From a virus, in the IMG/VR virus record IMGVR_UViG_3300032770_000018, positions 1 to 64,000 of that record: a stretch of DNA of 64,000 nucleotides. The stretch is one strand, 5' to 3'. The notes beneath the pieces are model-generated. The model was not told the origin of the DNA and made no database searches. It was given only the letters and a program-made list of their open reading frames with translations. The position numbers and the translations under genes are program-made. How positions within the stretch are numbered: position 1 is the stretch's first letter; every line of letters begins with the position of its first letter. Positions 25,652 to 54,592 of this stretch are shown piece after piece.

Positions 25652-25885
25652 ATGAATGGCGATGGATACGCACCAAATTACACGGTTCCAAACTTCAGCC
25701 ACCCAGAGCCCAGTAACGTTGGCGTCGTTAGCGCCGGCAGCGGCCTTGAGCAGGGCGCGTACGGAGGGATCGCTCCGACCGACACGCCAAGCGGCCCGAC
25801 TGAGCGGGTGGACACCGACACCGGCAAGGTCTGGTACTTCGTTGACGGCGAATGGGTCTTCAGCGGCATCACTCTCAGCCTATGA
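25652..25885 (+). CDS. small fibre-adaptor-like protein
   Basis: YGG..P..TP...DTDTGKVWYF.DGEW, similar to an internal domain of 51741; leaderless promoter. Confidence 0.65.
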   Translation: MNGDGYAPNYTVPNFSHPEPSNVGVVSAGSGLEQGAYGGIAPTDTPSGPTERVDTDTGKVWYFVDGEWVFSGITLSL

Positions 25886-27564
25886 AAAAACTACTCTGCA
25901 CGCTTCTGGCGTCGGCCTCGCTCTGCGTGTTTGGCTCTGGCCTTCCAACATTCACCGGAATTGTGAAGGGAGACGGCTCGGGCCTAACGAATCTCAATCC
26001 TTTGTCGCTGCCACAGAGCCTGCCAGTGGGCAATACCAATGCGATTATCGTCACCGGCCTGGGGGCCAACTTTGTGACATGGCTTAACGGGGTCAACGGC
26101 CCGGCAACCAACCTGACGGCTGCCAACGGCACGTACTACGTGAGCAACAGCCTGGGCTTTGCCTATCTGCCAGGAACCACCTTTGCGATTGACCTGACTG
26201 TGTTTGTGCTGTCGAACGCGGTGTTCGCGGAGGACCTGAACAACGTGACGGTGCTGGCTACGGTGGCTTTGCCGGCTGCCAACCCGGCTCAGCCAGGCAG
26301 CGAGGTTGGGAGCATGACTCAGGGGACCGCGGACGGCAATGGCGCGTCCTACCCGGGATGCTCGATCAGTTACCGGAGCAACAGCGCGAACTTTTTCCCG
26401 GCCGCAACAAGTCAGGAGTTTTTCCAGTACCTTCGCGACGCGCTCAAACCGATGGCGAGTGCGCTGCTCTCCTCAAATCTTTTCAGCGCCACCAGCGGAA
26501 CGCTCAAAGGTTACAGTTTGCTGAGTGGAGGCTATCCATCAGTCGGCACGTACACCTTTGTTGGCGACACCTACACCGCCGTCCCCGGTTGCTTAGACGC
26601 GATGAGCGTAGCGTCTTTGTCAAATCAGGTGAGCCGCTACATGGGGCTGGCCACGAATGGTTTTCCTTTTTTGTACGATTCGCTCCTCGCTGATTCGTCC
26701 CTGAGTGGGTACCCGGGGAGTCCACCGCTCACGAACCTGATGTGCGCAGGTTTCCTGGGTTACGTGCAGATCGTGTACGACCTGTGGCAAGCGTCTGGTA
26801 AGGCGCCGTGGGTGTGGGGCGCCTTTGGTGGGAATGTGACGAACTTGCTCAGCACGACCAACGTCATCAACCACTTAACCTTTTCCTACAAGCAGGCGCA
26901 GCATCCGCTGGATGACGACGCGACGATGGACGCGTTCTATGACGGCCCGGATTATTTCTGCCTGGGCAGCGTGTTCCGGTGGGTGGCGTTGCAGCAAGCG
27001 GCGGAGATGGCTGACAGCGGCTACCATCCACTGGACGCAACCGCGTTTCGGAACGAGTCGGGCCTGCTCAAATCGAACTTGGTAGCGATTCTCTGGGACA
27101 ATACGGCTGGGCTGTTCAAGGCGGGGACAAATGCCTCGACACATGCTCACTGGCACAATATCCCCGCTAACCTGATGGCGGCGCGACTGGGGATCGGTTA
27201 CGGGACCAACCAGGCGGCGATACTGTCCAACACGGTGGCTTTTTACGGCAAGGGCTCGTGGTCTGACGCTTGGGCGCAGGTGTATCACTATCCCACGAAT
27301 GAAGTGACGCCGTACACGGGCGCAATCTCTGCCCCGTGGTCTTATCCTTACCTCTACTGGGCGGATGAGTACGGCGGCTGCCTGGAGTTGACGCGTCCCG
27401 ACCTCGCTCAAGCCTACTGGCTGCAATGGGCAACGCATTTCCTGACGATTGGGGACACTGACCCGATTGTTGGGGGTGGTGTGCGCAGTCCGAACTTTTT
27501 CAAGCCTTACGCGCACATCCGGTGGCGTGCGGGCGATGCGGCGGCATTTAATTGCCCAAAATGA
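25882..27564 (+). CDS. exported protein: signal peptide, TN-rich N-terminus, (alpha/alpha)-barrel glycoside hydrolase-like C-terminus
   Basis: MKKLLCTLLASASLCVFG; GDGSGLTNL fibre-like motif; ALQQAAEMA...LWDNTAGLF six-hairpin-like pattern. Confidence 0.6.
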   Translation: MKKLLCTLLASASLCVFGSGLPTFTGIVKGDGSGLTNLNPLSLPQSLPVGNTNAIIVTGLGANFVTWLNGVNGPATNLTAANGTYYVSNSLGFAYLPGTTFAIDLTVFVLSNAVFAEDLNNVTVLATVALPAANPAQPGSEVGSMTQGTADGNGASYPGCSISYRSNSANFFPAATSQEFFQYLRDALKPMASALLSSNLFSATSGTLKGYSLLSGGYPSVGTYTFVGDTYTAVPGCLDAMSVASLSNQVSRYMGLATNGFPFLYDSLLADSSLSGYPGSPPLTNLMCAGFLGYVQIVYDLWQASGKAPWVWGAFGGNVTNLLSTTNVINHLTFSYKQAQHPLDDDATMDAFYDGPDYFCLGSVFRWVALQQAAEMADSGYHPLDATAFRNESGLLKSNLVAILWDNTAGLFKAGTNASTHAHWHNIPANLMAARLGIGYGTNQAAILSNTVAFYGKGSWSDAWAQVYHYPTNEVTPYTGAISAPWSYPYLYWADEYGGCLELTRPDLAQAYWLQWATHFLTIGDTDPIVGGGVRSPNFFKPYAHIRWRAGDAAAFNCPK

Positions 27565-28154
27565 CCCGTCTCCTCACTATCCTCCTTTGCCTATTCGCCT
27601 TCGCGGGCGTGACGCAGACGAATCACATCACACACTTGTGGCAGGTGCAGGCCATCGGCGCGGCGAAGCGGGAAGGCCCTCACGCCTACAGCATGATGAT
27701 GCAATCACTCGGACTGGTGCCCCCACCAAGGACCAATCCGCCTGTCTTGCTCGCGGCGTGGACGGCCTCCATTGACCCGCTGGCTACCAGCAATCGAATC
27801 TATGCGGTGTCTGGCGGTAAGACCAATGTCACAGCCACGAGCAACACCAACGAGGCCGCGCTCGTCATCACCAATCGAACTAGCCTGACCGTGACCGCCG
27901 TTGACACCGTGAGTAAGCGCGAGAGTCTGCCGTCGAACACGGTTCACTACCCCGGCACGGCTGTTCTCCAATTCAGCAGCAAGACCGGAACAAATGTTGA
28001 GTTCACATCGGCATTCGCCGCCAAGCCACGTTGGGGCGTCACTAACTCCACCGTGACTATCAGCAACCCGCCACTCGCGGGCCTCGGTCAATTCTACCGC
28101 GCCATCGGGGGGATGAACCCGCCAAAGCGGTGGATAGATTACAACGGGCCATGA
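27561..28154 (+). CDS. exported FN3-like protein
   Basis: Signal peptide; W..S...VTAVD...ESLPSN; terminal FYR motif. Confidence 0.65.
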   Translation: MTRLLTILLCLFAFAGVTQTNHITHLWQVQAIGAAKREGPHAYSMMMQSLGLVPPPRTNPPVLLAAWTASIDPLATSNRIYAVSGGKTNVTATSNTNEAALVITNRTSLTVTAVDTVSKRESLPSNTVHYPGTAVLQFSSKTGTNVEFTSAFAAKPRWGVTNSTVTISNPPLAGLGQFYRAIGGMNPPKRWIDYNGP

Positions 28155-28393
28155 CTGCCATCGAGAGAAACCAACCGCTAGACGTGCTGGACATTGAAAT
28201 CATCCGGCACCGGGGCTATCAGGATGCACCTGACAAGGAACTTGCTGTGGTCCTAGGAATAACACGCCCCGCAATGGAGGCGAGGTTGAAAAAGCTTCGA
28301 CGCATTTTCGGGCGCTGCGACCACCTGTTCATGCACCAGCTTGCCACCGCTTTTGGTCTGGCCCCTGTAATGCCCGTGATTTATGCCTCCTAA
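28151..28393 (+). CDS. LuxR-type HTH protein
   Basis: DKELAVVLGITRPAMEARLKKLRRIFG. Confidence 0.7.
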   Translation: MTAIERNQPLDVLDIEIIRHRGYQDAPDKELAVVLGITRPAMEARLKKLRRIFGRCDHLFMHQLATAFGLAPVMPVIYAS

Positions 28394-28634
28394 CAACCAG
28401 TCCCTCGAAATCGTGACCATCGTGCTCAGTGTCGGCTCGATCACGTTTCCAATCCTATTCGGGTTCATTATTTGGAAGATGATGAAGATTTTCGTCACCC
28501 GCGAGAGCTTTGACGATTACAAGAAGCTGGCGGACACGCAGCGGGCAGCTTTGGTGGATTCAAATATCAGGATCGAGAAGAAGTTGGACCTGCTGGTTGA
28601 GGCCCAAATGAACGGCAGAAGTCATGCGCGATGA
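28383..28634 (+). CDS. TM + coiled-coil protein (holin/hemolysin-like)
   Basis: N-terminal TM helix, RIEKKLD tail. Confidence 0.6.
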   Translation: MPPNNQSLEIVTIVLSVGSITFPILFGFIIWKMMKIFVTRESFDDYKKLADTQRAALVDSNIRIEKKLDLLVEAQMNGRSHAR

Positions 28635-28852
28635 ACAAGATCGAGGCTTACCTCTTGACCTGTCAGACCTCAGCGATTTGCGTGATCATCATTTCGGCGC
28701 TGGCTATCGTCGGATGGCTCTCGGGAGCTATCAGGCTCGCGTCATGGGGAAGCGCGGTGCCAATGTCTTTGCCGACAGCGGTTTGCTTCATTGCTATAGC
28801 GGTCAACGGGTTTCTTTTGGCCGAGTCGTTTCGGGTAACACGCAAGGAATAA
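28631..28852 (+). CDS. two-TM membrane protein
   Basis: Hydrophobic; coupled. Confidence 0.6.
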   Translation: MNKIEAYLLTCQTSAICVIIISALAIVGWLSGAIRLASWGSAVPMSLPTAVCFIAIAVNGFLLAESFRVTRKE

Positions 28853-28853
28853 A

Positions 28854-29186
28854 ATGACCAACAGCACGCGCAAATGGCTTCGGGCTGGGATTGAGACCTT
28901 CATCCACGGCGGGGCGGCGGCAGTCGGAGGCGGCGTCGGCGCGGCTGCCATTGACTCGATCAACTTCGGGCTCTGCACGGCCAAGTCGTGGAAGCTCATG
29001 GGGTCGTGCTTTCTGGTAAACGGTATGCTCCGGTTCTTTCAGTGGTGGAGCAACAACCCGCTGCCAATGGACTCTAACCCGCCTTTCCCGATTGCGCCAG
29101 CCATCAGCCTAAACCCTCTGGCAAAGGTCCAGACGATTGCGCCGCAGCCGCCTGCACCGGGACCGGAGCCCGCGCCGAAGCCATGA
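28854..29186 (+). CDS. holin-like membrane protein
   Basis: KWL..G..TFIHGGA...YL/W..NPLP pattern. Confidence 0.55.
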   Translation: MTNSTRKWLRAGIETFIHGGAAAVGGGVGAAAIDSINFGLCTAKSWKLMGSCFLVNGMLRFFQWWSNNPLPMDSNPPFPIAPAISLNPLAKVQTIAPQPPAPGPEPAPKP

Positions 29187-29384
29187 TCACCCGCAAAGAG
29201 CTTATCCGCATCATCATCGGCCTGGCGGTGATTGCGCCAAACCATGCTTGACGCTATTCTGCTTTTGACCTATGCTTTTCTCGCTTTGAGTGACGCACAA
29301 AAACCTTTGCCGTCTGCCGCGTTGGAAACTTCGCAAGTCGTATCCTCAAAGCACGCGGCGGACGGCGCTTTGGTTTCAAAGAGC

Positions 29385-30419
29385 ATGAGCGAACCGATCC
29401 ACATAATTAGCCTCGGCGCTGGCGTGCAGTCTTCAACGGATGCTCTGATGGCCAGCGAAGGGGAATCCCCGCCGATGCCGGACTTGGGTTGTTTTGCCGA
29501 CACACAACGGGAGCCCCTGAGTGTTTATCTGTGGCTCTCAAAACTATGTGGCGTACAAGTGCGGTTCCGTCCAAATGGAAGGCCATACGTCGAACCGGGC
29601 GTTTACCACTCTGGCCTTCTTAAATTTCCAGTTCACATTGTCACAAAAGGCGACATCGGAGAAGATGCGCTGCGGGTGAGAAAGCGCAAGGACGGCAATG
29701 GTTCATGGGTGCGCAGTGGAGTTCCTCACTACAGCATCAATGCTGATGGATTAAAAGGCCACGGACCTAGGCAATGCACGTATGATTTCAAAATTATACC
29801 GTTAGAGCAGGAGCAACGCCGATTGATTGGCAAAGACAAGATGAGAGTATGGCGCAAGAGGCACCGATCAGCTTTGAAGGAAATTGCCAAACACGAGAAA
29901 GAACTGTCGGTGTGGAAGCGTGCAAAAAAGGCAGGGTTGCCGCATTCTCCGGTTGCTCCATTAAGACCAGAGGTGGCGTGGGCAGAATGTCAAGCAGACC
30001 CGCTTGTCGTGGTCCGTATTGGCATTTCCACAGACGAGGCAGGCCGCGCAAAGCCATCACGGATTCCTTGGGCAGTTCATCGTTGGCCGCATTTAGAGAG
30101 GGGCACGAACCGGGATGGATGCGTCGAATGGTTAGCCGCCCGAAATCTTAAAGCTCCGAAATCAGCTTGCGAATTTTGCCCATACCATGATGACGATGAA
30201 TGGATCAGATTGAGGGATGTCGAACCGGAGAGCTTTGCCCGAGCTGTGCAATTCGATTATGCCTACCGCGCAGCGAAAATAAAAACTGTTTCACAAAAAG
30301 GCTTCAAGCCTTATTTACACAACAGCAGAGTCCCGCTGGACAAGGTTAAATTCCAGAAATTGCAAGGCAAACAACTGACGATGTTTAACAACGAGTGCCA
30401 AGGGATGTGCGGGGTATGA
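29385..30419 (+). CDS. PP-loop PAPS-reductase-like protein #1
   Basis: ISLGAGVQSS, FADT, CTYDFKI, IGISTDE, KSACEFCPYH, ECQGMCGV; more AT-rich; own promoter. Confidence 0.85.
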   Translation: MSEPIHIISLGAGVQSSTDALMASEGESPPMPDLGCFADTQREPLSVYLWLSKLCGVQVRFRPNGRPYVEPGVYHSGLLKFPVHIVTKGDIGEDALRVRKRKDGNGSWVRSGVPHYSINADGLKGHGPRQCTYDFKIIPLEQEQRRLIGKDKMRVWRKRHRSALKEIAKHEKELSVWKRAKKAGLPHSPVAPLRPEVAWAECQADPLVVVRIGISTDEAGRAKPSRIPWAVHRWPHLERGTNRDGCVEWLAARNLKAPKSACEFCPYHDDDEWIRLRDVEPESFARAVQFDYAYRAAKIKTVSQKGFKPYLHNSRVPLDKVKFQKLQGKQLTMFNNECQGMCGV

Positions 30420-30588
30420 AACTCGCCAAAACCATCCTCACCCTGCTCGCAGCCGGAGCCGTCGTCTGGTTCGTCGTCTGGCTGCTGACGGGTGCGTTCA
30501 CTGGCCGGGCAAGGACGACACCGAATACGATTCGTCTGGACAATTTCACCCGTATCACCCAACCTCACTGAATAGCACGAACAAATGA
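30416..30588 (+). pseudogene. small lipoprotein apparently broken by a 1-nt frameshift at the lipobox
   Basis: MKLAKTILTLLAAGAVVWFVVWLLTG in frame 0; CVHWPGK...STNK* in the -1 frame ends in ATGA coupling. Confidence 0.5.
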
Positions 30589-30809
30589 ATGGGCCTTCAT
30601 ATTGCGAGACTTGCGGCTCGTGGCCAGCGAGAGAAACAGCCAAGGGCCTTCGCTGCCACATTTTCGAGTGCCGTGACCTTGCCGCGGAACACCCCGTACC
30701 GTTACCAAATGACGCACAAATGCTCAAAGACTTGGCGGAAATCGGGGTTGCTGGTGCGCAGCAAAAGCTCAATGAGATGATTTTGGACGCGGTCTTCACT
30801 CCACTGTAA
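30585..30809 (+). CDS. small Cys-containing protein
   Basis: CxxC...CxxxxC; coupled. Confidence 0.55.
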   Translation: MNGPSYCETCGSWPARETAKGLRCHIFECRDLAAEHPVPLPNDAQMLKDLAEIGVAGAQQKLNEMILDAVFTPL

Positions 30810-30835
30810 CAACAACTCAAACTGAAAGGTTCAAA

Positions 30836-31405
30836 ATGAAAAAACTGTTCGTAATAGCATCCATCGTCGCACTGTGCGGCCTGCCAGTGAAGGCTCAAAC
30901 CAACACCACCCTGCCGACGGCCCCGCAGCCAAGCCCGCAGCAAAGCTGGCTGGTCAACGCCCTCAGCCTGCACAATCCCACGTTGGAGTACTTCACCAAT
31001 GACATTTCGGTGGAGTTGGAGCAGGCCGCCAAGATTGATTCGGCGCTCCCTGGCACGCTCCAAAGTACTACTCTCGACCTCTGGAAGCGGATCGGCACTT
31101 CCACCGAACTGGGCGGTGATGCTGAAATTGACACGCTCGGAGTCGACAACGACATCAACGGCATTTTCGGCCACGTTGATCTGCGTCTGGATTGGGACAA
31201 CATCGCCGGCGGACTTAGCCTCGGCGGTGGCCGGCAAATCACGTTGCAGACCACTCGAATCGAGGGCGGCTTCTTTGCCGAATACCGAGTGATACCCAAC
31301 GTCGGCGCAAATCTCCGGTGGTACGCCGGATACCAGCCAGACGGTGTGGCAAAGAAAGCCTACACGGCTTTGCTTTTGGGCATCACGGTCGGCCTGGGCA
31401 AGTAA
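30836..31405 (+). CDS. exported outer-membrane beta-barrel-like protein
   Basis: Signal peptide ending VKA-Q; alternating amphipathic strands. Confidence 0.55.
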   Translation: MKKLFVIASIVALCGLPVKAQTNTTLPTAPQPSPQQSWLVNALSLHNPTLEYFTNDISVELEQAAKIDSALPGTLQSTTLDLWKRIGTSTELGGDAEIDTLGVDNDINGIFGHVDLRLDWDNIAGGLSLGGGRQITLQTTRIEGGFFAEYRVIPNVGANLRWYAGYQPDGVAKKAYTALLLGITVGLGK

Positions 31406-31422
31406 TCTGATTCCCGCGAAGT

Positions 31423-31974
31423 ATGGAAATCGCCCAGTACAAGGGCAGGACATTTAATCCATCCAGGATCATCGAGTTCCTCACGCGCGGCCCGTACTCC
31501 CATTCGGCTTTTCACTTTGACGAGCACGCCAGCGTGGTGGCCGCTCAACTTGTCCGGTCGGAAACGCCAATGGGAGACCTGAGGTGGATCAGTGAGGGAA
31601 GCGTGGTCGAAGCGTGGCCCCCAAAGCTGCGCTCCGTCGAATCGCTCAGCGCCCAACACGATCCTGGAACGGTGGTAGACATCTTTGGCTACGATCCACC
31701 GCTCAGTGGCACCGAGGAGGCGGCGCTCATTAGGCTCATCATCCCAGAGATCGGCACGCCCTACGACTGGAAGGACGTGCTGCGCTTCGTCACCCGCCGG
31801 AGACCCAAGCCGGAGGACCTGGAGCGGACATGGTTTTGCTCTGAGTTTGTCACCGAACTGTCCCGCAAGATCGGGCGCCCGTTCTTCAACCAGACCGAAT
31901 CCTGGGAGGTTCCCCCATCATGGGTGCAACGCACTCGCGCGCTCAAATACCTGCGCACTGAGACAACAACCTGA
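31423..31974 (+). CDS. permuted papain-like NlpC/P60 (YiiX/YebB) amidase/peptidase
   Basis: YSHSA...VEA...GTPYDW...WFCSEFV. Confidence 0.85.
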   Translation: MEIAQYKGRTFNPSRIIEFLTRGPYSHSAFHFDEHASVVAAQLVRSETPMGDLRWISEGSVVEAWPPKLRSVESLSAQHDPGTVVDIFGYDPPLSGTEEAALIRLIIPEIGTPYDWKDVLRFVTRRRPKPEDLERTWFCSEFVTELSRKIGRPFFNQTESWEVPPSWVQRTRALKYLRTETTT

Positions 31975-32342
31975 TGCTGGTCGACATCGCCTCAAAGTTT
32001 CCGCCCCGGGCCTGCCGGATGCTCGCCAGGAAGGGCAACGGCCGGAACTGCCGGCCAAAGAGTTACGACGAAATCGCCAGGGAGGTGGGGGTAGCTCGGT
32101 CAACGCTGATCCTGATCCTCAGCCGCCCGGACTGGGGAAACACCGGGATCAGAACGGTTGACGCCATCGCACGTGCGTGCGGAGTGGACTTCCTCAATCC
32201 GAAACGGCACGCCAAACTGGTTCGCCGTGGGAAGTTCGCTCACATCGCCAACGCCAATGGGAGCCAGCGGCTGATGTTTGACCGGATACTTCCGAAGGAT
32301 ATGGGCAGCCGGCAGAGTTCTGGGCCGCCAAAGGCCATCTGA
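31974..32342 (+). CDS. XRE-like HTH protein
   Basis: SYDEIAREVGVARSTL...IARACGVD. Confidence 0.7.
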   Translation: MLVDIASKFPPRACRMLARKGNGRNCRPKSYDEIAREVGVARSTLILILSRPDWGNTGIRTVDAIARACGVDFLNPKRHAKLVRRGKFAHIANANGSQRLMFDRILPKDMGSRQSSGPPKAI

Positions 32343-32396
32343 CGGCCGCGGCGGCGCGCGGCGCGGACGCGTTGCGACGGCTGCTCTCTTCTCCTC

Positions 32397-37375: not shown

Positions 37376-37380
37376 AACCT

Positions 37381-38935: not shown

Positions 38936-40891
38936 ATGAAAGTAAGAAATTCGCTTTTGGTGCTGGCGGTCCTCACGTTGGCCCTGCTGGCTATAGCCTT
39001 CACGGTGCCCTACCTCAAGGAGTTCGCGCTGGGCACAGCCCTCGCGCTGCCCTTCCTGGCGGTGACGAGCACCCAAAACCGTTTCCAAGACACGCCATGT
39101 ACGGTCGTGGTGTCGAACAACTACGACACCCACGGAACGATCACGCGCGCCAGCGTGGCCAACCTGACGCCCGCGCAGCTTGAGGCGCTGTTCCGACCGG
39201 GGGGCCTGTTTGCTGACATGGACTCGTGGTTCAAGACCTCCTTCGAGATGAAAGCCTGCGGCATCAAGGTCAACGGCATGTATGACTGGGTAATGTCCAG
39301 CCAGCGCTCGATGGGCAGCCTGCTCACCTACGAGAAGATGGACCGCGGCCCCAGCCTGCTGAAGCCCTTCGTCATGGGCCGACAGGACTCGGTGATCAAC
39401 AAGGAATTCTGGGCGATCACTGGCGGCGTCGCCGAATCGGGTTACACGCCAGACCAGCCCGGCACGGCCATCGGGACGGCCACCGCTGGTCCCATCACCG
39501 CAGCCGACCTCAGCGCCTCCGGCGCCGCCTCCTCCGACCGCATCATCCGCGTGGTCAACCGCTACGGGATGGACCTGGATGCCAAGTGGTTCCTCAACCG
39601 CGACCGCGTCTTCATCATGGGTTTGAAAAACGGCCAGGCTACCTCCGGCTCGTGGAAGGTCCTGGCCTCCGGCGTTTCGACCGACCTCTCCTACGTGGAT
39701 GTCTGCATCACGAGCGAAAACGCGGGATCGACCAGCGTCTACGACGCGACCCCAACGGCTGGCGTGTTGCTGGCCGGCGGCAATAACGTGAGCGACTACG
39801 AAAGCTGGTGCAATAACCGGCCGACGGTTGACCCCCGCAAGCGCGTGCCGTTCTGGTATCAGACCATGCGCCGAGCCCGGGCGGTTGACTCGGAATACAA
39901 GGTGGTGTTCGCGCGCCTGATGGAGAGCAACGAATATTTCCGCCAGTTCGGCGACCTGCCGTTGGCTGAACGCAATCGCCAGGACGAAGAGCTTTTCCAG
40001 CGCTCTTGGCTGAACAGCTTCTTCTTCGGCAAGAAGATCAGCACCAACCAGACGCTGGCTAACTGGCAGAGTCTGGAACAGATTCTCACGGTCACCAGCA
40101 CCGGGGTTGATCCGGGCCAGGGCGGCAAACTCGTCGCCTACCGAGCCAACATGGTAGGCATCTACGAGCAGCTCAAAGCGTGTAGCCGGGTCAAGGACCT
40201 GCAGAACAACCAGATCAACCTCTACGAGTTCCTCGGCGAGTGCTACCGCATCTACCGCGCGCGCAAGAGCCAGGGCCGGGTGGTTGATTCGCTGGACGTG
40301 TTCATGGACAGCGTGTCAGCCGCCGACTGGGAGACCGCGTTCATCAACTACTACAAGCAGGAGTACGGCGACATCGTCCGTATCAACATCGAGACCGGCA
40401 GCAACGAACTGGGCTTCCACTGGCGGTCTTTCACGGTTAAATACCCGATTGGCGTGCAGATTAACCTCGTGACCCACGAGTTCTTCGATGACATCGCCAA
40501 CGCGTTCACCACGGAGAATCTCGCCAGCCGCGGCAACTTCGCGCTGATCCTGGACATCGGAAAGCCCGGCCCAAAGGGCGGGACGATCTATCCGGGAATG
40601 ATCGCCTCCAACCGCAAGATGCGGACGCTGGGTGACCTCGAACAACTGGCGAGGATCGACCCGACCTTCGCCTGCACGATGGAGAGCGTGACTGAGGAAA
40701 TCAGCCTGACATCGGAGACCTGCACAGCCGTCTGCGAGTGCCCGGCAAACTCGGTCTGGATCGAGAACCGCGCGCCCGGTGTTCCGAGCACCAGCGCGAT
40801 GACGCAAAATCCAGACTACTTGAATTTGTATCAGTTACCATGGGCTTTTCTAATCGCCGCATCATTGGCGATTGGCGGTCTTTTGTGCTGA
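38936..40891 (+). CDS. major capsid protein (putative) with hydrophobic N- and C-termini
   Basis: Position (portal-scaffold-X-terminator), strong codon bias, YQT...FFFG...GI pattern of HK97-type MCPs. Confidence 0.7.
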   Translation: MKVRNSLLVLAVLTLALLAIAFTVPYLKEFALGTALALPFLAVTSTQNRFQDTPCTVVVSNNYDTHGTITRASVANLTPAQLEALFRPGGLFADMDSWFKTSFEMKACGIKVNGMYDWVMSSQRSMGSLLTYEKMDRGPSLLKPFVMGRQDSVINKEFWAITGGVAESGYTPDQPGTAIGTATAGPITAADLSASGAASSDRIIRVVNRYGMDLDAKWFLNRDRVFIMGLKNGQATSGSWKVLASGVSTDLSYVDVCITSENAGSTSVYDATPTAGVLLAGGNNVSDYESWCNNRPTVDPRKRVPFWYQTMRRARAVDSEYKVVFARLMESNEYFRQFGDLPLAERNRQDEELFQRSWLNSFFFGKKISTNQTLANWQSLEQILTVTSTGVDPGQGGKLVAYRANMVGIYEQLKACSRVKDLQNNQINLYEFLGECYRIYRARKSQGRVVDSLDVFMDSVSAADWETAFINYYKQEYGDIVRINIETGSNELGFHWRSFTVKYPIGVQINLVTHEFFDDIANAFTTENLASRGNFALILDIGKPGPKGGTIYPGMIASNRKMRTLGDLEQLARIDPTFACTMESVTEEISLTSETCTAVCECPANSVWIENRAPGVPSTSAMTQNPDYLNLYQLPWAFLIAASLAIGGLLC

Positions 40892-40927
40892 TCGTTTCGA
40901 TGTAGCGCTACAACGAGGGTTGAGTGC

Positions 40928-40962
40928 GGCGCCCCGGCGAAAGTCGGGGCGCCTGCTTTTTT
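40928..40962 (+). terminator. rho-independent terminator
   Basis: GGCGCCCCGGC-GAAA-GTCGGGGCGCC followed by TGCTTTTTT. Confidence 0.9.
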
Positions 40963-41019
40963 GCTTTGCTTGGTTGGCGATTCGGTGCAATGCTCTGGCA
41001 CAGTGAAAATCGAAATCCA

Positions 41020-47014: not shown

Positions 47015-47017
47015 ACT

Positions 47018-47530
47018 ATGCCGGGATCTGACTACAGGTTCGACGCGACGGCCGCAGCGGTCGTGCGTGTGATGTTCCGTGGCCGAAAGCCGCTTGTCCT
47101 GGACGTTGGCGCCGGCGCCGGGAAGGGAGCAACGGTCTTTGGACCACCTTTGTCGCGCGAGGTTCACGGGCTTGAAATCTTCCGCAAATACATCGACGAG
47201 TTCGACCTGCGAACGAAGTACGCTGAGGTCTTCTGTGGCAACATCATGGATTGGAGCCCGTGTCAGCTCTCGAAGTACGACCTCCTGGTTGCCGGCGACG
47301 TGCTCGAGCACCTCACTATTGACGATGCCAGGAAGCTAATCCGCAACTGCCAACTGTCCGGATGCAGTATGATCGTCCAGGTGCCGTTCCTCTACGAGCA
47401 GGGTCCGGAGAACGGCAACGAGTACGAGCGGCACATTCAGCCGGATCTGACGCGCGACCTGATGGCTGTCCGCTACCCCATGCTCTTCGAGGTCTTGGCC
47501 GATCCCCGTCTGGGCTTGTACATCCTATGA
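47018..47530 (+). CDS. class I SAM-dependent methyltransferase
   Basis: VLDVGAGAG, GDVLEHL, NEYERH. Confidence 0.88.
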   Translation: MPGSDYRFDATAAAVVRVMFRGRKPLVLDVGAGAGKGATVFGPPLSREVHGLEIFRKYIDEFDLRTKYAEVFCGNIMDWSPCQLSKYDLLVAGDVLEHLTIDDARKLIRNCQLSGCSMIVQVPFLYEQGPENGNEYERHIQPDLTRDLMAVRYPMLFEVLADPRLGLYIL

Positions 47531-48291
47531 ATCCAACCGTTTCGCTCGCAATCTTCACCCACAACGACCTTCCGATGCTCAAGGCCACACTGCTTCACGA
47601 GCAGCGCTGGGTAGACCAGGTGTGCATCCTCGACATGGCTTCCGCCGATGGCACTCAAGAATTCTGTGAGGCGTGGCTCCGGCCCGGCGTGGACGTATAC
47701 CGGCGCCGGGATACCAATACCTGCCCTGACCTGGGGTTCTCCGAAGCCAAAAACGCCGTCATGGACATGGCGACCTCCGACTGGGTGCTTTGCGCCGGCG
47801 CCGACACCATCATGGACTGGCGGCAGGCACCGAACATCAAGCGCGTATTGGCCGAGGTTAAAGCCGACGCATTGAGCATAAACACCGTCAGCATCCTGCC
47901 ATTCAAAGAGTGCCAACCCCACCAGATCGAGGAGGCAGTGGCACGCAAGAACTTCGGGAAGGATGGGCGCCATCGGTGCTTTGTTCGTCGTGGCTCAGGA
48001 ATTGTCTTCAAGGGCTACATCCACGAAGAGCCATTCCGCGGAGAGGTAAACGTGTTCGGAGAGGCTCAGCTAACACAGCTTTCCAGATTTCACCTGCACG
48101 GCTGGGGCAACGACAACCTGCGTTCCTGGCGCTACGGCTGGATGCTGCTCCGGGCCTGGCAGCGTGAGCCCGCGCTTCAGGCATACACAAACGAATGGTG
48201 GTACAAGGAGTATTGCCCTCAGAACGCCGACCTGCTGAAAAGGCAATCAGAGGCCTACGAGGAATATCGCCAGAAAACCGGTGACCGCTGA
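47527..48291 (+). CDS. glycosyltransferase family 2
   Basis: ILDMASADGT, FSEAKN, WVL..AD, GYIHE. Confidence 0.8.
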   Translation: MNPTVSLAIFTHNDLPMLKATLLHEQRWVDQVCILDMASADGTQEFCEAWLRPGVDVYRRRDTNTCPDLGFSEAKNAVMDMATSDWVLCAGADTIMDWRQAPNIKRVLAEVKADALSINTVSILPFKECQPHQIEEAVARKNFGKDGRHRCFVRRGSGIVFKGYIHEEPFRGEVNVFGEAQLTQLSRFHLHGWGNDNLRSWRYGWMLLRAWQREPALQAYTNEWWYKEYCPQNADLLKRQSEAYEEYRQKTGDR

Positions 48292-49018
48292 GCCCAAGAT
48301 CGCCGGCGGACTCATCACCCGGAACTACAGCCGGTTTCCGGGGACCTTCCCAGTGCTAAAGCAGATGTCGGACGTGACCATCGTCATTGACGACAGCCCG
48401 GGGTCCGCAATTCCAGACATTGGCGCCGACGAGACCGTCTCACTGCGGAGAAAGGGCGAGTGGAACGACACGGCCAACCAGGTCCTGCTCTTCCTGCGGG
48501 CGGCCGTCCATGGGTGCAACTGGGTTATTGGCTGCGGCGACGACATGCTGCCATCGGTTGCGCTGTTCAACGGGATAAGAGCCCTCTCCAAGACCGATGC
48601 CGACATGGTATGGGTTGAGTTTCGGGAGCTTTGGGAGGGCATTGACCAATACCGCTCCGATGGCATTTGGGGGACGAAGGGGGCGCCGGCTCTGGTGCGC
48701 AACTGGATGCTCGAGCAGAGGATAACGCTGCCTGACCTGACCATGCGGCTTCACCGAAGGGCCTGGAATGAGGACCGGAAGGCCGCGCATACGAAAGCCG
48801 ACGCCAAATACGCCGTCTATCACTTCGGGTCGCTAACGCGGGCACTCCGCGAGGCTAGGGTCGAGAAGTATCGCCGGGCTGACCCGACAAACCGTTTCCA
48901 GCGCGACTACTCCTACATGCTGGACGATTCAGGCATACAGCTTTCCAAGGTGCCGCGGGAGGACCAGGGGGCCATGCTGGAATGGATCGGTGGGTCCGCA
49001 AATCCAATTAAGGCTTGA
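48281..49018 (+). CDS. glycosyltransferase family 2-like
   Basis: VIDDS, WVIGCGDD, YRSDGIW, YHFG. Confidence 0.7.
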   Translation: MTAEPKIAGGLITRNYSRFPGTFPVLKQMSDVTIVIDDSPGSAIPDIGADETVSLRRKGEWNDTANQVLLFLRAAVHGCNWVIGCGDDMLPSVALFNGIRALSKTDADMVWVEFRELWEGIDQYRSDGIWGTKGAPALVRNWMLEQRITLPDLTMRLHRRAWNEDRKAAHTKADAKYAVYHFGSLTRALREARVEKYRRADPTNRFQRDYSYMLDDSGIQLSKVPREDQGAMLEWIGGSANPIKA

Positions 49019-49050
49019 GCGCCAGGAGAATCGGCGTATAGCGTTGCGCC

Positions 49051-49731
49051 ATGAGTATCTCGGCCGCAGATTTCAAAGCGCTTATCCCGGACCCATCAGC
49101 CTCGATGTGCGGGAACTTCATCAACAGCCTGCTCAAGCTTCCAGTCCTGCTCTACCAATGGATCCAGCAGGTGGAGGGCACGAGCTCCGGAGGTGGTGGC
49201 GGCGGCGGCGGCACAGTGGCTGGGACGCTCAAACCCGGGGACCTTATCTTCTCCGCCGCGCCGGCCGCTGCGGACTCGACGCGTCTCCTGTGCGACGGCA
49301 CCGAATACCCTCAGGCGACATATCCGGCGCTCTTCGCGGCGATTGGCAACATCTATGGGACGCCCTCAAACAGCGCCAACTTTAAAGTCCCGAATTTCAG
49401 CGGGCGCTTCCCCGTCGGCGTCGGTAACTTTCCAAACGCCGGGGCGGTATCGCTCGGAAACACCGGGGGCAGCGATCAGCAGGCGATCAGCGAGGCAAAC
49501 CTGCCCCTCTATACACCGGGGCCACTCAAGTCCTCTAATGGAACGGACAAAGTTTGGACGGACGTCTATGGCACGGGCCCGACTAAAAACGGTCCTGGGT
49601 TCAACGCTACACAGGGCGCCCAGAATCAGCCGGAGGTAGACTTCTCCGACCCATCCTACGGAAGCAGTACCCCGACGCAGCTCCCAATTCTTCCGCCGTA
49701 CGTTGGAACGTACATCTACATCAAGACCTAG
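49051..49731 (+). CDS. tail collar domain protein
   Basis: LLCDG.EY...YPALFAAIG..YG...FKVPNFSGRFPVG...YIKT. Confidence 0.9.
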   Translation: MSISAADFKALIPDPSASMCGNFINSLLKLPVLLYQWIQQVEGTSSGGGGGGGGTVAGTLKPGDLIFSAAPAAADSTRLLCDGTEYPQATYPALFAAIGNIYGTPSNSANFKVPNFSGRFPVGVGNFPNAGAVSLGNTGGSDQQAISEANLPLYTPGPLKSSNGTDKVWTDVYGTGPTKNGPGFNATQGAQNQPEVDFSDPSYGSSTPTQLPILPPYVGTYIYIKT

Positions 49732-49734
49732 CCC

Positions 49735-51741
49735 ATGCCATCGCTCCAAATAAGAGGCGTCCCAGTGGCGCCGCTGACGGGGCCGCTCGACCTCCGAAGC
49801 GAAGTCGCACTGATGGAGGGATCGTCGCTTAGGATGCGGCAGAACTTCCAAGCGACCGGAAAGGGCAAGCTCACGCGTGGCTGTGGATGGGCCAAACTGC
49901 TGGACTCGGCGACCTACAACAACCAGGACTTTCACGACCAACTCCTCTATTTCGGGCCCAATGGGGCGATCCGCCAGCCAGTCACAATGCTCTTCCCAGC
50001 CGAGTCCACGATGGGCGTCCGCAGCCTAATCCTGGCCACACAGAGCCAAATCTGCATGTTGGTCGAGTCCTCCGGCGACTACCGCGTTCTTGGAAACGCC
50101 TACGGTGGCGTCCCATCGGCATCGGCATCGGCGCCACGCTTCAAAGCCGCCCAGGTCAACGACTACGTCGCTTTCACCAACGACTTCAACAAGCCGATGT
50201 ATTACGTGCTCGAGGACGGCTCGGGCACGCTGCTCCAGACTTTCGACGACCTTGACACCATCGGGGTCAGCCGGGCCGCTGTAACCTGGGCCTGGAGAGG
50301 ATGCTTGTTCTTCGCTGACGTGGTGATGGACGGCCAGCGGCAGAGCAACCTGCTGCTTTGGTCGGATTATCAGAACCCGACGAGCTTCGACCCAGCCGTC
50401 CTTTCGTCGATCACTGGCACGAAATATCTCAATCCAGGAGAGCGCATCTTGGCTGGCTTGGAGTTCGGAAACTCCTTCCTCATCTACACAACCGAGAACA
50501 TTTGGGAGATGGTGGTCGTCGGCGGAGACCAGTCGTTCGACTTCGCTATCCGCTACCCAGGCTCAAAGAACCGTTCAATCGGCCTGCTGAAATACCCGAA
50601 TACCCTCGCATCCCTCGGCGATGAGCACTGCTACCTGGCTGAGGACGGCCTTTACACGTTCAACCCGTACTATCTCAAGCCCGACCGCGTCGAGTGGGCG
50701 CACCTGGCGACGCCGGAGGTCCTGGACAACATTGACTCGGCCAACTGCTCGGTCCACGTCGGGCTCTACAACAACTACGAGTACCTGCTTTCGGTCGCAA
50801 AGGTTGGGGACGCCAACAACTGCCCAAGTGTCACTCTCAGGCTGAATACCGCCTATAGCTGCGCCGACGTGGTCGACGCTGGCTTTACCGCCTTTTGCAA
50901 TTTCCAGAGCTTCCTTTCCCCAACGGTTCGCGATTTCATCACCTCGAACGGAATATGCTCTTTGCAGGGAATGGCGAACCTCGGCTTCCCGCTAGGCCAG
51001 CAGGGCGTTGCAAAGCCTCCGGGAGCAATCACATCGGCATTCACCCCGGACTGCTTCTACACTAAGGTCACGCAGACGATTGGCGATGTGACCGTCGAGG
51101 ACTGGAATCAGGCGCACGCCGCCCCAACGTCGCTTTGCGCCCTATTGGGCAACCAGACCTTTGATAGCGTCTGCCGGAAGTGCGCGGGGCCAACGTTGCT
51201 GGTCGCCGCCAGCTCGGACGACTGGTGCCTGAAGCAAATCGGAGGCGTTAGCTACCGTGAGGTCTGCCTGAATCCGTCCGCCATCGGGAGCTTCATCACC
51301 AATGCGGGATACAGCAGCGCCGTCGGGAACTACGCGCTGCGTGGGTATGACTCAATACTCAGGCTCTCTCCGATGTACATTGCCGGCGAGCGCGCGCCGA
51401 TGATGCAACTCGACAGTGTGACGCTCGACTTCGAGGCTAGAGCATCAAGCCAACCGGCTTCGGTCTCACTGCGCGTTGGCGTCTCGGCCCAACCGACCGA
51501 CCCCAACGGGCCCGACATGCAGTGGTTTGCCCACAGCGCCAAGACGCTGGCCCTTCAAAGCTCCACCACGCCAGCCCAGCGCCTCGCCGCCAATGTGACG
51601 CCCTCCCAAGTAATGCGCTGGCAGCTTTACCGAGTAGCCAGGATGCTCTACCTCGAATTGACCATTTCAGGGACGGGTGGGGACGCTGACTTTAGCCGCG
51701 TGACCGTTGAGGCCGGCCCGTCGCGCGCGAGGAACTTCTAA
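49735..51741 (+). CDS. tail tubular/nozzle (gp10/gp12-like) protein
   Basis: Beta-propeller-like, LLWSD..NP..F pattern; position. Confidence 0.65.
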   Translation: MPSLQIRGVPVAPLTGPLDLRSEVALMEGSSLRMRQNFQATGKGKLTRGCGWAKLLDSATYNNQDFHDQLLYFGPNGAIRQPVTMLFPAESTMGVRSLILATQSQICMLVESSGDYRVLGNAYGGVPSASASAPRFKAAQVNDYVAFTNDFNKPMYYVLEDGSGTLLQTFDDLDTIGVSRAAVTWAWRGCLFFADVVMDGQRQSNLLLWSDYQNPTSFDPAVLSSITGTKYLNPGERILAGLEFGNSFLIYTTENIWEMVVVGGDQSFDFAIRYPGSKNRSIGLLKYPNTLASLGDEHCYLAEDGLYTFNPYYLKPDRVEWAHLATPEVLDNIDSANCSVHVGLYNNYEYLLSVAKVGDANNCPSVTLRLNTAYSCADVVDAGFTAFCNFQSFLSPTVRDFITSNGICSLQGMANLGFPLGQQGVAKPPGAITSAFTPDCFYTKVTQTIGDVTVEDWNQAHAAPTSLCALLGNQTFDSVCRKCAGPTLLVAASSDDWCLKQIGGVSYREVCLNPSAIGSFITNAGYSSAVGNYALRGYDSILRLSPMYIAGERAPMMQLDSVTLDFEARASSQPASVSLRVGVSAQPTDPNGPDMQWFAHSAKTLALQSSTTPAQRLAANVTPSQVMRWQLYRVARMLYLELTISGTGGDADFSRVTVEAGPSRARNF

Positions 51742-52628
51742 TGGCAGCGAGAGCCAACCCGCTGGACGGTTTCAGGACGTCGGTAACGACGAATGATTTC
51801 CGGGTGCCGGAGATCCCAAACCTCGGGCAACTCATCGAGCAGCACGGCTTTTCCGCCGGCATGAAAGCCCATGCCCAGGCGATGACGCAGTGGAGCAAGG
51901 AACTTGAGGCCACAGTCAACGCCCGCCTCCAACCAAAGGACCAGGCGGCGAGCCTCGGATCGGCTGCGGCTCCAGCGTCCACGACACCACCCACCGGCGG
52001 CACGACCGTCTCCTCCGGTTCAGGCTCAACTAGCCCGTCAGCACCATCCTTTCCCGGGTACAGCACTCTCCTCCATGCCTTCGCCGACGATAACTGGAAC
52101 AACGCGTTGCGAGATTTCATCAGCACCATCCTACATGGGCTGGGAATCCTCACCGAGGGAAGCTATGGAGGGCAGACACCGCCGTTCACCCCGGCAGCAA
52201 TGTCCATAGCGGTGGACGATGACACAGGAACGGTCTGGATTTTTGAAAATGGGGGCTGGGTTAAAATGCAGACAGCCGCCAGCCAGGGACCGGTCTATTT
52301 TTACTGCGCGGACACTGGACTATGGCACCAGGTCTCGGTTGTCGGCGATCCATCCGACTGGGGGATTGACGGCGTTGGGGTCCAATTTCCCCCGCAGGGC
52401 GTTACGCACGCCTACACGTCATTTCAGTTCCCTTGCGCCGATACCAGGCTTTGGCATGAAGTCAGCCTTGTAGGAACTCCTCCCACGTGGGCGATTAACC
52501 CGACCGGGGCTGGCCCGTCCGACATTGACGTTGACTTCGGCTTTGCCCTACAACCGTTTTGGAATGCGGACCTTGAAGAATGGGTGTATCCGAAGCTCGT
52601 CGGCTCACCGCCGAGCTGGGGATTCTAA
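51741..52628 (+). CDS. tail/fibre adaptor protein with three C-terminal repeats
   Basis: F.CADT.LWH.VS.VG.P..W repeated three times (third divergent). Confidence 0.6.
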   Translation: MAARANPLDGFRTSVTTNDFRVPEIPNLGQLIEQHGFSAGMKAHAQAMTQWSKELEATVNARLQPKDQAASLGSAAAPASTTPPTGGTTVSSGSGSTSPSAPSFPGYSTLLHAFADDNWNNALRDFISTILHGLGILTEGSYGGQTPPFTPAAMSIAVDDDTGTVWIFENGGWVKMQTAASQGPVYFYCADTGLWHQVSVVGDPSDWGIDGVGVQFPPQGVTHAYTSFQFPCADTRLWHEVSLVGTPPTWAINPTGAGPSDIDVDFGFALQPFWNADLEEWVYPKLVGSPPSWGF

Positions 52629-52631
52629 ACT

Positions 52632-53807
52632 ATGAAACGAACACATTTGATAATCGTAATGTTGGCCGGGCTCGCGCTTTTACTGCTGGCCGCAACCCTG
52701 CCCAATCGCACGGTGCTGTGCGACTCGAACGGGAACCTGCTCTGGCCCACGAACTTCTTTTCCGATGCCACCAACGGCGTGGACTTCGCAGCGGCGGTCA
52801 ATGCCGTTTCGACTGTCGGAGGCGGAGGCATCAGCGCAGCCAACGCGACGAATGCCGCTCGCACTGTAGTTACGTGGAGCAATTCGCTCTATCTGCCTAT
52901 TGGCGGCACAGCAGTCGCGGCCTCATCCGGTTGGCCTACAACTTGGGACTGGACGGCGGCGGTGACAGGGAAACCGGATTTCGCGACGAACACGTATGCG
53001 GGGGTGTCGAACGCGTTGGGGTTTGTGGCGGCAACGAACGGGGCGGCGATTGGGGCAGCGCAGCTTCCGGCGTTGAGCGGCGATATCACGACGAGCGCGG
53101 GGTCGGCGGCGACTTCCTTGAAGGCAACCGGGACGGCCGGCACCTATCGGAGCGTGACGTTCGATGCGCAGGGGCGCGAGACGGGCGGCACAAGTCCGAC
53201 GACATTCGCGGGCTACGGCGTGAGCGATAGCGCCGCAAACTTGCTGGCGGCTTTGACGGACCGGAACTTTTTCGGGGCGACAAATGAGGTTGCCACCAAC
53301 CTGAACAGCGCCGGGGTGACGGCCGGGTATGTGCTGACGGCGACATCCTCAAATAACCCGGCGTGGGAACCGTCCCAGGGCGGAGGCACGACCGGGGCTC
53401 TGACTAACAACTCGGCCCAGGGCATGATCAATTTGCAGGGACCAGTCAACGTCACGAACGGAGTTTACCAGGGCACGACAACGCTGGCTTACACGGGCTA
53501 CACCAACGTTCTGGTGGACTTCTCGACGGGCACGCGGTTCAAGTTGCTCATCTCGACCAACACTTGGTTGATTCCGACAAACATTGGCACCGTGCTGGAC
53601 TCGGATTTTGTTCTCAAAACCTTTATGGCCAGCCCGGGTGTGTTCACGGTTGGGTTGGGGACCAACGCCCTGGGCCAGCGCTTCACGCTGCCCGGCGGCG
53701 TCGCGTTCACGGCGACCACCAATGTCGGCGCGGCAGACCTTTACACCATGATGGCCGATTACACCGGGACCAACACCATGATCGTCTTAGCCCCCAACTT
53801 CAAATGA
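52632..53807 (+). CDS. tail-fibre-like protein with signal peptide
   Basis: GTYRSVTFDAQGR...PTTFAGYGVSD fibre repeat; 15 TN dipeptides; N-terminal signal peptide. Confidence 0.75.
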   Translation: MKRTHLIIVMLAGLALLLLAATLPNRTVLCDSNGNLLWPTNFFSDATNGVDFAAAVNAVSTVGGGGISAANATNAARTVVTWSNSLYLPIGGTAVAASSGWPTTWDWTAAVTGKPDFATNTYAGVSNALGFVAATNGAAIGAAQLPALSGDITTSAGSAATSLKATGTAGTYRSVTFDAQGRETGGTSPTTFAGYGVSDSAANLLAALTDRNFFGATNEVATNLNSAGVTAGYVLTATSSNNPAWEPSQGGGTTGALTNNSAQGMINLQGPVNVTNGVYQGTTTLAYTGYTNVLVDFSTGTRFKLLISTNTWLIPTNIGTVLDSDFVLKTFMASPGVFTVGLGTNALGQRFTLPGGVAFTATTNVGAADLYTMMADYTGTNTMIVLAPNFK

Positions 53808-54592
53808 AAGCCTTGCTATTCTACATCTTTCTGGTTTGTGCATCGGCCTCGGCGCAGATGGCGCTCTGGAACAAGACACAGTTGGCCATAGTCCCGCAAG
53901 GGTTGGTCGGATACTGGACGCTGGACGTCGCGGATTGCCCAAGCGGAAAGGCGCTGGATGCCAGCGGCGCGGCGACTAGCGCGTTCCAAGTCGCGGCTCC
54001 AACCCAGACAAATGGAGTTGTTGGGCAGGGGATGTTCTTTAATGGCTCAACCCAATACATTGACATCACAACTTCATCGAATGCCTGGTACAATTTTAAG
54101 ACCGGAACGGTGTGTTTGTGGTGCAAGGAGCGGGATACGGGAGGGGAAACGATCCCGTGGTCAGCGTCGTCAACCAGCGCATCCACCACAGAAATTTTCA
54201 TTGAGGAAGATTGGCGCTCTGGAAACAAATTCTGGAATATCGTTGGTCGTTACAATAGCAGCACAGAATGGCAGTACACGATTTACATTCCTGGGGGCTA
54301 CGCCTCTAACAACTGGGTTCACATCGCCCTCGTCCAAAATGGGGTCGCCCCGACGTTCTTTACGAACGGGGTTCTGTCAACGATGACGGGAACAACCACC
54401 ACGGCTCCGTCATACTGGCTAAGCAACATTTTGTATTCGGCTAACGCCACGCCCGCGAACAAGATTTCCATCGGGCTGTTGCATCGGAGTACGCTGGTGT
54501 CTCAGTATGCTGGGGCGGTGGATGATGTGCGGGTTTACAACTACCCGCTTTCGGCAGCGCAGATTGCGAACATTTACAAGGCGGGACATTGA
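53804..54592 (+). CDS. LamG/ConA-like lectin domain protein with signal peptide
   Basis: GLVGYWTLD, WVHIALV, GAVDDVRVYNYPLSAAQI. Confidence 0.88.
   Translation: MKALLFYIFLVCASASAQMALWNKTQLAIVPQGLVGYWTLDVADCPSGKALDASGAATSAFQVAAPTQTNGVVGQGMFFNGSTQYIDITTSSNAWYNFKTGTVCLWCKERDTGGETIPWSASSTSASTTEIFIEEDWRSGNKFWNIVGRYNSSTEWQYTIYIPGGYASNNWVHIALVQNGVAPTFFTNGVLSTMTGTTTTAPSYWLSNILYSANATPANKISIGLLHRSTLVSQYAGAVDDVRVYNYPLSAAQIANIYKAGH

Follow-up and report, generated by a model that had tools for sequence, protein, structure and literature searches.

To our knowledge, fibre and spike assembly is taken to be cytoplasmic in every tailed phage studied so far. Phages also encode proteins that leave it: Llp of T5 and Cor of phi80 and N15 are exported receptor blockers encoded beside receptor-binding genes, and endolysins such as Lys44 of Oenococcus phage fOg44 and Lyz of P1 are exported by the Sec route or as signal-anchor-release (SAR) proteins. 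A further exported phage protein is Lom of lambda (PMC12309495). Exported fibres have been described in Bdellovibrio bacteriovorus, whose mosaic adhesive trimer (MAT) fibres are Sec-exported, phage-like trimeric fibres working at the cell surface (Caulton et al. 2024, PMC10769870). For the fibres, tailspikes or depolymerases of tailed phages, our literature searches found no report of Sec signals. Here we describe two gene cassettes that would encode such proteins in IMG/VR record IMGVR_UViG_3300032770_000018, a complete 78,136-bp phage genome with 127-bp direct terminal repeats and a guanine-plus-cytosine (GC) content of about 60%, uncultured and of wetland origin; the analysed stretch, which we call the window, is the first 64 kb (positions 1 to 64,000) of that genome. 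Genes are named by their start position, and coordinates written start..stop are window positions on the + strand. Cassette A would consist of a small motif protein (25652), an exported glycosidase-like protein (25882) and an exported small protein (27561), and cassette B of an exported fibre with a swappable tip (52632) and an exported LamG lectin (53804); a fifth protein with a signal-type N-terminus, 30836, lies near cassette A. Our leading interpretation, tentative and held at a little under even confidence, is that the cassettes are Sec-exported, horizontally exchanged, receptor-directed accessory modules acting in the envelope of the infected cell.

A preliminary description of this stretch had attributed signal-type N-termini to these five proteins, and all five were flagged by a rule-based test whose requirements are a tip of net positive charge, a hydrophobic core and a site of small residues. 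Of 89 open reading frames (ORFs) examined, six were positive, the sixth being the major capsid protein 38936. The same rule fires in 0.29% of 16,009 internal windows and in 0.58% of internal Met windows, and at a background of 0.3-0.6% about half a false positive would be expected among 89 N-termini. Each of the five proteins has exactly one hydrophobic segment, and all five combine a charged n-region with this single h-region at the extreme N-terminus; no hydrophobic segment was found in 25652, 51741, the collar protein 49051 or the 668-amino-acid (aa) protein of the tail region. Clean c-region sites (cleavage at the arrow) are present in 30836 (VKA↓Q), in 53804 (ASA↓Q) and in the copy of 27561 carried by another phage, G001 (AVA↓Q), and the predicted site in 25882 (VFG↓S) is weaker. 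The h-region of 52632 spans 18-20 aa and lacks a clean A-x-A site, and its N-terminus may, from these features, be an uncleaved anchor rather than a cleaved signal. The starts of 25882, 27561 and 53804 overlap the preceding stop (ATGA), 52632 is separated from it by the stop plus 3 nucleotides (nt), and 30836 stands alone behind a 26-nt gap; the non-secreted 51741 starts at a TAATG overlap. None of the five genes has an in-frame ATG soon after the hydrophobic segment, and nearby alternative starts are GTG or TTG only, with no upstream purine-rich site. Because four of the five starts are packed against stops and no credible start lies downstream of any segment, the hydrophobic segments cannot be skipped, and the possibility raised in the preliminary description that the true starts lie beyond them fell away. 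Second isoforms from internal starts were also considered, and none was credible.

Conservation of the signals in homologues, on which the same description had made its proposal depend, was borne out. A signal-like N-terminus is kept in 11 of the 12 loci that encode a relative of fibre 52632, the twelfth having a classical fibre N-terminus, and signals are also kept in two or three further phage backbones whose copies of the cassettes are 52-88% identical. Among 17 database relatives of the fibre, seven have a clear signal and six have none, and in five of those six the N-terminus is that of a classical fibre, with Mtd_N and P2 types among them. In other phages the LamG protein, the 197-aa protein (27561), the N-terminus of the 560-aa protein (25882) and the signal of the 189-aa protein (30836) all recur with signals. 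What is retained is the design, in which a charged tip and a hydrophobic core precede a site of small residues that has Gln at +1, while the residues themselves vary. By these comparisons the five N-termini behave as real, conserved Sec signals on virion-type domains. Gln occupies the +1 position of the predicted cleavage site in four of six independent signal families of the G000, G001 and L061 cassettes, and in a crude survey at 10 of 54 predicted sites, against 4.1% Gln overall; the pattern fits real signal-peptidase substrates. A 'Q rule' has been described for signal-peptidase I substrates of Bacteroidetes and is obeyed by some Porphyromonas phage genes (Matrishin et al. 2023, PMC10367356), and we take the similar pattern here as a lead only toward a possible host of the Fibrobacteres-Chlorobi-Bacteroidetes (FCB) type. 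A search for the Bacteroidota -7 promoter motif gave no enrichment. Relatives of the capsid protein sit in metagenome-assembled genomes of five phyla and are unreliable as a sign of the host; one distant prophage lies in a Limisphaerales chromosome, with no exported fibres nearby.

The capsid protein served as an internal control. This SU10/crAss-type major capsid protein (38936..40891; ESM Atlas 0.96 to the SU10_MCP and Crass_capsid clusters) passes the signal heuristic, so that a hydrophobic N-terminus is by itself no proof of export. Yet its N-terminus contains two hydrophobic segments, at residues 5-27 and 31-43. Two segments would bring the chain back to the cytoplasm, whereas one would send the body of the protein out, and this contrast is consistent with the signals of the five proteins being topologically meaningful. 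The N-terminal extension of about 48 aa that holds both segments is kept in relatives that are 63-73% identical (L013-L020 examined); more distant capsid relatives lack it and start at a conserved 'RFQ(D/E)TPC'. At the other end of the protein, a hydrophobic stretch of 19 aa is unique to this genome, its relatives ending at '..NLY'.

Cassette B occupies a late tail-fibre slot whose genes are translationally coupled. The slot is the hypervariable stretch that, in this phage and its close relatives G009, G010 and G013 (63-73% capsid identity), is bounded on one side by tail genes, namely that of the 668-aa protein and those around it, and on the other by a conserved gene of 137-154 aa. Its upstream neighbour here is the 668-aa virion structural protein (49735..51741; phrog_3287, 3.8e-14), which is 47-54% identical in G010 and G013, and its right border is a conserved gene of 153 aa (54589..55050), recognised by its likeness by eye to the 137-154-aa genes of G009, G010 and G013, with no BLASTP match listed among the relatives at E 1e-5. 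The slot holds an N-domain protein of 71 aa and another protein of 95 aa in G013, an N-domain fibre of 182 aa and a protein of 119 aa in G009, the same two as in G009 plus a 1,209-aa fibre with a signal in G010, and 51741, the exported fibre and the LamG protein in this phage. G009 and G013 have no exported fibre there and G010 has a different one, which makes this gene accessory; cassette A is absent from all three relatives.

The fibre itself (52632..53807; phrog_5181) is a 391-aa protein with a signal or signal-anchor, a tail-fibre repeat at about aa 144-214 and a C-terminal tip of 141 aa. Over residues 144-270 or so there are matches in Sphaerotilus and Ralstonia phages, to proteins annotated as fibres or as hypothetical, and the fibres of cultured phages that share the repeat have no signal themselves: the virion-anchoring N-terminus of the classical homologues is replaced by a signal in 52632, as it is in 25882. 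Two further phage backbones carry the tip at 83-85% identity. An AlphaFold2 model of the fibre was poor, with a predicted local distance difference test score (pLDDT) of 45.7 and a helix over residues 2-21, and PDB sequence searches with 52632, 25882 and 51741 returned nothing meaningful. Downstream of the fibre lies a 262-aa protein of LamG-type lectin fold (53804..54592), which matches Pfam Laminin_G_3 (PF13385; E 2.8e-11, 44.2 bits, above the gathering cut-off of 27.6) and phrog_8510, a virion structural protein. Homologues of this protein are 86-88% identical, keep the signal and always stand directly downstream of the same tip domain.

Upstream of the fibre, the 295-aa product of 51741 (51741..52628; HMMER, 51 relatives), initially labelled adaptor 2, consists of an N-terminal domain of about 70 aa, a linker rich in Ser, Thr, Gly and Pro, and four hairpin repeats. 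The sequence motif that the preliminary description had seen in both 25652 and 51741 is real (BLASTP, 19/38 identities, E 2e-9), and 51741 carries three further degenerate copies. Its N-domain belongs to a wide family. Most members stand alone, as proteins of 66-82 aa, and others are joined to fibre ends of ordinary type, among them a tail-collar domain (P0046); the hairpin-repeat end of 51741 recurs on P0020, a fibre with a different N-terminus. On the strength of these fusions and of the recurring repeat end, 51741 appears to be a self-sufficient short tail fibre, and its domain make-up is best read as that of a complete short fibre, not a mere adaptor. Its AlphaFold2 model has an overall pLDDT of 60.7, with a helix pair at residues 20-60 or thereabouts (pLDDT 97-98) and the rest poor. 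Readthrough from 51741 into 52632, which are in frame and separated by a TAA plus one codon, was considered and dropped, the arrangement being kept in neither G001 nor G010; such readthrough would yield a fusion with an internal hydrophobic segment. A second conventional receptor-binding candidate, presumed to be cytoplasmic, is the tail-collar fibre protein 49051 (49051..49731; Pfam Collar 5.8e-13; twelve PHROG tail families), which has no signal.

Both cassettes recur in G001, a 72.5-kb terminal-repeat phage whose portal, capsid and terminase show no detectable similarity to those of this phage. The G001 fibre tip is 85% and its LamG protein 86% identical, and nucleotide identity over the shared cassette stretches is 78-84%. 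In L061, a third backbone with a tape measure protein, the tip (83%) ends a 1,076-aa exported protein that is followed by the LamG protein (88%), and these genes close the tail module. The mature N-termini of the exported fibres of G001 and G010 are alike despite differing backbones, and so are not backbone-specific anchors. Upstream of these two fibres stand genes that are related neither to 51741 nor to one another. In further phages of no relation, two to four exported proteins follow each other in a row, among them a Peptidase_S74 chaperone fibre (the exported fibre of L005), a depolymerase that combines a beta-helix with K1-lyase_C, and a protein with Melibiase_C. This phage and G001 also share a C5-cytosine methylase and its 268-aa neighbour (window 10206-11544; G001 2121-3525) at 86-93% nucleotide identity, and short stretches near the left end (135-179 and 531-660); this sharing suggests a common host.

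Cassette A opens with a non-secreted 77-aa protein (25652..25885), labelled adaptor 1, which ends in one copy of the hairpin motif (YGG..P..TP...D.DTG.VW...G.WV). G001 has a 63% identical homologue in the same position, and the gene's stop and the start that follows share an ATGA. The only further carrier found among IMG/VR and JGI metagenome contigs was G001; one more homologue was found in the protein library. A frameshift fusion of 25652 with 25882 was looked for by eye and set aside, there being no slippery site. The second gene encodes a 560-aa signal-peptide protein (25882..27564) with a fibre-like N-terminal region of about 100 aa and a six-hairpin glycosidase-like body, identified by the signal heuristic and the ESM Atlas. 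The earlier label of a glycoside-hydrolase-like spike finds an echo only in ESM Atlas look-alikes, which have the six-hairpin (alpha/alpha)6 glycosidase fold and fall in glycoside hydrolase (GH) clusters of GH63, GH78 and trehalase type (feature scores 0.84-0.86); there is no Pfam match to go with them, nor an NCBIfam or PDB sequence match, relaxed Pfam and NCBIfam searches included. On a model of pLDDT 0.48, the structure search reached template-modelling (TM) scores of 0.49-0.59 by query, with 0.55-0.59 for the GH63, GH78 and trehalase-type clusters, and of at most 0.79 by target. Neither a muramidase nor an amidase domain was recognised in 25882, and no sequence relatives were found beyond G001, where the N-terminal 100 aa are 52% identical to those of a 599-aa signal-peptide protein whose body differs. 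The third gene encodes a 197-aa signal-peptide protein (27561..28154), positive by the heuristic and possibly FN3-like by its earlier label, with a full-length, 84% identical G001 homologue that keeps the signal; nucleotide identity is likewise 84% over 27559-28154. A little further on, 30836 (30836..31405) encodes a 189-aa protein, possibly beta-barrel-like by its earlier label and also positive by the heuristic, with predicted cleavage at KA↓Q. G001 retains nothing of it but the signal peptide (16/21 residues), to which a mature protein of no relation, with a C-terminal Phe, is joined. Nucleotide identity is 82% over the upstream region and the 21-aa signal (window 30808-30898; G001 16419-16504), and the junction looks, from this alignment, like a recombination joint just after the signal peptide. 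The flanks of cassette A (28383-29186 and 31423-31974) encode an 83-aa protein with one membrane segment, a 110-aa protein with no membrane segment in our scan, and a protein that matches C92 permuted-papain amidases faintly (E 0.19); as a set, these three may be lysis genes. The matching region of G013 (25467-33186; L045) holds a run of lipoprotein-like and signal-bearing genes, including one for a 1,159-aa Melibiase_C protein.

Taken together, these comparisons would make the five proteins genuine Sec substrates belonging to, or lying near, two horizontally mobile accessory cassettes of receptor-binding-type parts that are expressed together with the adjoining phage genes. Rather than serving as virion parts assembled in advance, the proteins would cross the inner membrane and work in the infected cell's envelope, where they would most likely bind or cut the same envelope glycans that are met by this phage and by co-infecting phages. 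Masking or removing receptors in this way might reduce superinfection and the loss of progeny on debris, and polysaccharide layers could be cleared for release, while the particle itself would carry the collar protein and the 295-aa protein, both non-secreted, as its conventional fibres. The fixed and conserved signal-like N-termini, the exchange of the cassettes between unrelated phages, their patchy presence among close relatives and the lack of an anchor domain on the exported fibre are observed; the export itself, the cleavage, the target and the benefit to the phage we infer. The Bdellovibrio MAT fibres offer a precedent for exported phage-like fibres at work on a cell surface, and the receptor blockers of phages one for exported proteins encoded beside receptor-binding genes; display on the infected cell, which the preliminary description had offered as its own alternative, is compatible with action in the envelope. 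Several observations pull the other way. The genome encodes no signal-free paralogue of the 52632 tip, so that if the tip recognises the receptor of the phage, the exported form is its sole carrier. Cassette B sits inside the late tail operon, with stops and starts overlapping or abutting, and the exported proteins of G010 and L061 occupy positions where a receptor-binding protein would be expected. Consensus scans, limited to sigma-70-type signals, found fewer promoter and terminator sites at the cassettes than in shuffled sequence, and the GC content of the cassettes (0.59-0.61) is like that of the genome and does not deviate from it, unlike that of classical morons. No lipobox Cys or C-terminal sorting motif was seen by eye, NCBIfam and Pfam gave nothing, and an outer-membrane route is not evident. 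Finally, a periplasmic job for a fibre and a lectin is hard to name.

The most direct competitor grew out of the preliminary description, which had proposed that the fibre parts are exported, possibly modified in the periplasm, and docked on cytoplasmic adaptors. Of that proposal the conserved Sec-like signals, the fixed starts and the shared motif stand. The pairing with adaptors is not borne out: 51741 is better seen as a complete fibre, G009 and G013 keep a 51741-type protein with no exported fibre, and the upstream genes in G001 and G010 are unrelated. Nor did a signature of periplasmic modification emerge in the exported set, where the Bacteroidetes O-glycosylation sequon occurs 0.31 times per 100 aa against 0.21 elsewhere (tiny counts) and cysteines form no paired pattern. 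In the form that remains, the exported proteins would be the real receptor-binding parts of the particle, folding in the periplasm and docking on tails at holin lesions or at lysis, through the cytoplasmic motif proteins or directly. We regard this as unlikely, though it accounts for a good deal: the fibre repeat is one found in annotated fibres and the LamG protein matches a PHROG virion protein; the genes lie in a hypervariable slot after the tail genes, where close relatives hold other fibre genes, and are translationally coupled to those tail genes; the corresponding genes end the tape-measure tail module in L061 and lie inside the structural module in L010; the tip and its downstream gene are exchanged as fibre tips are with their partner genes; 25882 and its G001 counterpart pair a conserved N-terminal part with a swapped body, as tailspikes do; and the lack of a signal-free tip is what docking would predict. 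Against these stand the close relatives that manage with no exported fibre, the want of a recognisable backbone-specific anchor on the exported fibres, the unrelated 'adaptors' upstream in different phages, a fibre already complete in 51741, core tail proteins (668 aa, 527 aa and collar) that carry no signals, and the literature we searched, which holds no tailed-phage precedent. The two-segment N-terminus of the capsid protein could fasten heads to the membrane that the exported proteins would cross, on its inner face, and would thereby suit docking. A two-compartment assembly can be drawn from this, in which the capsid is tethered to the cytoplasmic face of the inner membrane by a two-helix hairpin that is later removed, and Sec-exported fibres, lectins and glycan-cutting enzymes, possibly with pyroglutamate N-termini, mature in the periplasm and join tails at lysis; this we think doubtful, and somewhat more so than docking alone.

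It is also conceivable that the cassettes serve lysogeny, a temperate phage supplying its host surface with a Sec-exported fibre, lectin and glycosidase that alter adhesion, aggregation or glycan use. A tyrosine integrase gene is present (Pfam 2.4e-11); cassette A has small membrane and regulatory genes for neighbours and is not part of the structural module; 30836, nearby, would be exported and its G001 counterpart ends in Phe like an outer-membrane protein; and MAT fibres would, by analogy, provide a precedent. The cassettes are moron-like in being present or absent among syntenic relatives and exchanged between unrelated phages. They are unlike morons in composition and in the lack of a promoter or terminator of their own that we could find. 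Moreover, the late tail genes to which cassette B is coupled are as a rule silent in a lysogen, several of the carrier genomes have terminal repeats, and a surface-sorting signal was not found; on balance we consider this account improbable. Least probable of all, to our minds very much so, is that nothing is exported, the N-termini being assembly or membrane-tethering helices, or the products of wrongly assigned starts, on cytoplasmic proteins that assemble normally. The capsid protein, bound to stay inside, passes the same heuristic, and the hydrophobic stretch of the fibre is long, at 18-20 aa, with no clean A-x-A site. The capsid protein differs, however, in the second segment that would return its chain to the cytoplasm, the starts of the other proteins are fixed by preceding stops with no credible start downstream, and the signal design is kept, with Gln at +1, while the residues change, and is found on 11 of 12 related fibres.

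Elsewhere in the genome, the large terminase match is weak, as is the portal match, which is of SU10 type, and we found no cultured phage related by its capsid protein. A 4,616-aa ORF begins at window position 59061, runs through 64000 and on to 72911 of the genome, and is 36-53% identical over the best-aligned stretch in G010 and G013; this giant protein may be a polyvalent or injected virion protein. Inside the tail module (45977-49018) lie genes for a family 4 glycosyltransferase (GT4), an S-adenosylmethionine (SAM) methyltransferase, a GT2 glycosyltransferase and a 245-aa protein of no known kind; similar genes were seen by eye in the distant relatives L054 and L055, and none of the products has a signal or membrane segment. 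Two genes resemble 3'-phosphoadenosine-5'-phosphosulfate (PAPS) reductases (29232-30419 and 40924-41829; phrog_424, 6e-22 and 3.6e-36), one of them sitting between the capsid gene and the tail genes.

Having found virion-type receptor-binding modules with conserved secretion signals, exchanged among three phage backbones, we have a well-defined case with which to ask where such proteins act. Should the envelope be their place of action, fibre parts would have been recycled into a new class of accessory factors by which phages mask receptors, destroy them or leave the cell; should they return to the particle, phage assembly would include an undescribed compartment, and two-compartment assembly, if it proves true, would be a route undescribed for tailed phages. 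Either way, a plain 'tail fibre' label in host-range prediction and annotation pipelines would mislead. Conventional fibres and tailspikes, such as those of the T7 gp17 type or gp42 of Sphaerotilus phage R1, resemble the proteins described here in their central repeat, in the exchange of tip and downstream gene and in their position at the end of the tail module, but they have a virion-anchor N-terminus and no signal, and here a signal stands in that place. The exported proteins Llp, Cor, Lom and Bor share with ours the signal peptide, the location in or by the tail-fibre region and a host-specific accessory character; they differ in being small lipoproteins or beta-barrels that lack fibre, lectin or depolymerase domains, several of them with expression signals of their own. 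Genes of Porphyromonas phages likewise carry Sec signals that expose Gln, and a capsid protein with a predicted signal has been reported there too, but the genes named are for capsid, spanin and proteins of no assigned function, with no fibres or tailspike-type proteins among them (PMC10367356). Exported endolysins are also late, Sec-dependent proteins that wait in the envelope, and could be a model for 25882 beside its small membrane proteins, although their folds and substrates are other than those of 25882. Of the systems described so far, the MAT fibres come closest. Those are chromosomal genes of a predator displayed on its own surface, whereas cassette B belongs to the late operon of a phage, and they have a beta-rich domain, conserved and about 130 aa long, right after the signal, our proteins having been set beside them by description only; the MAT pieces in PDB are C-terminal ones. 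In other respects the two resemble each other: both are phage-tail-fibre-like proteins that begin with a signal peptide and are, or in our case would be, exported, with swappable tips; full-length MAT fibres can be obtained by way of a periplasmic leader; and some MATs end in an S74 chaperone, as does the exported fibre of L005.

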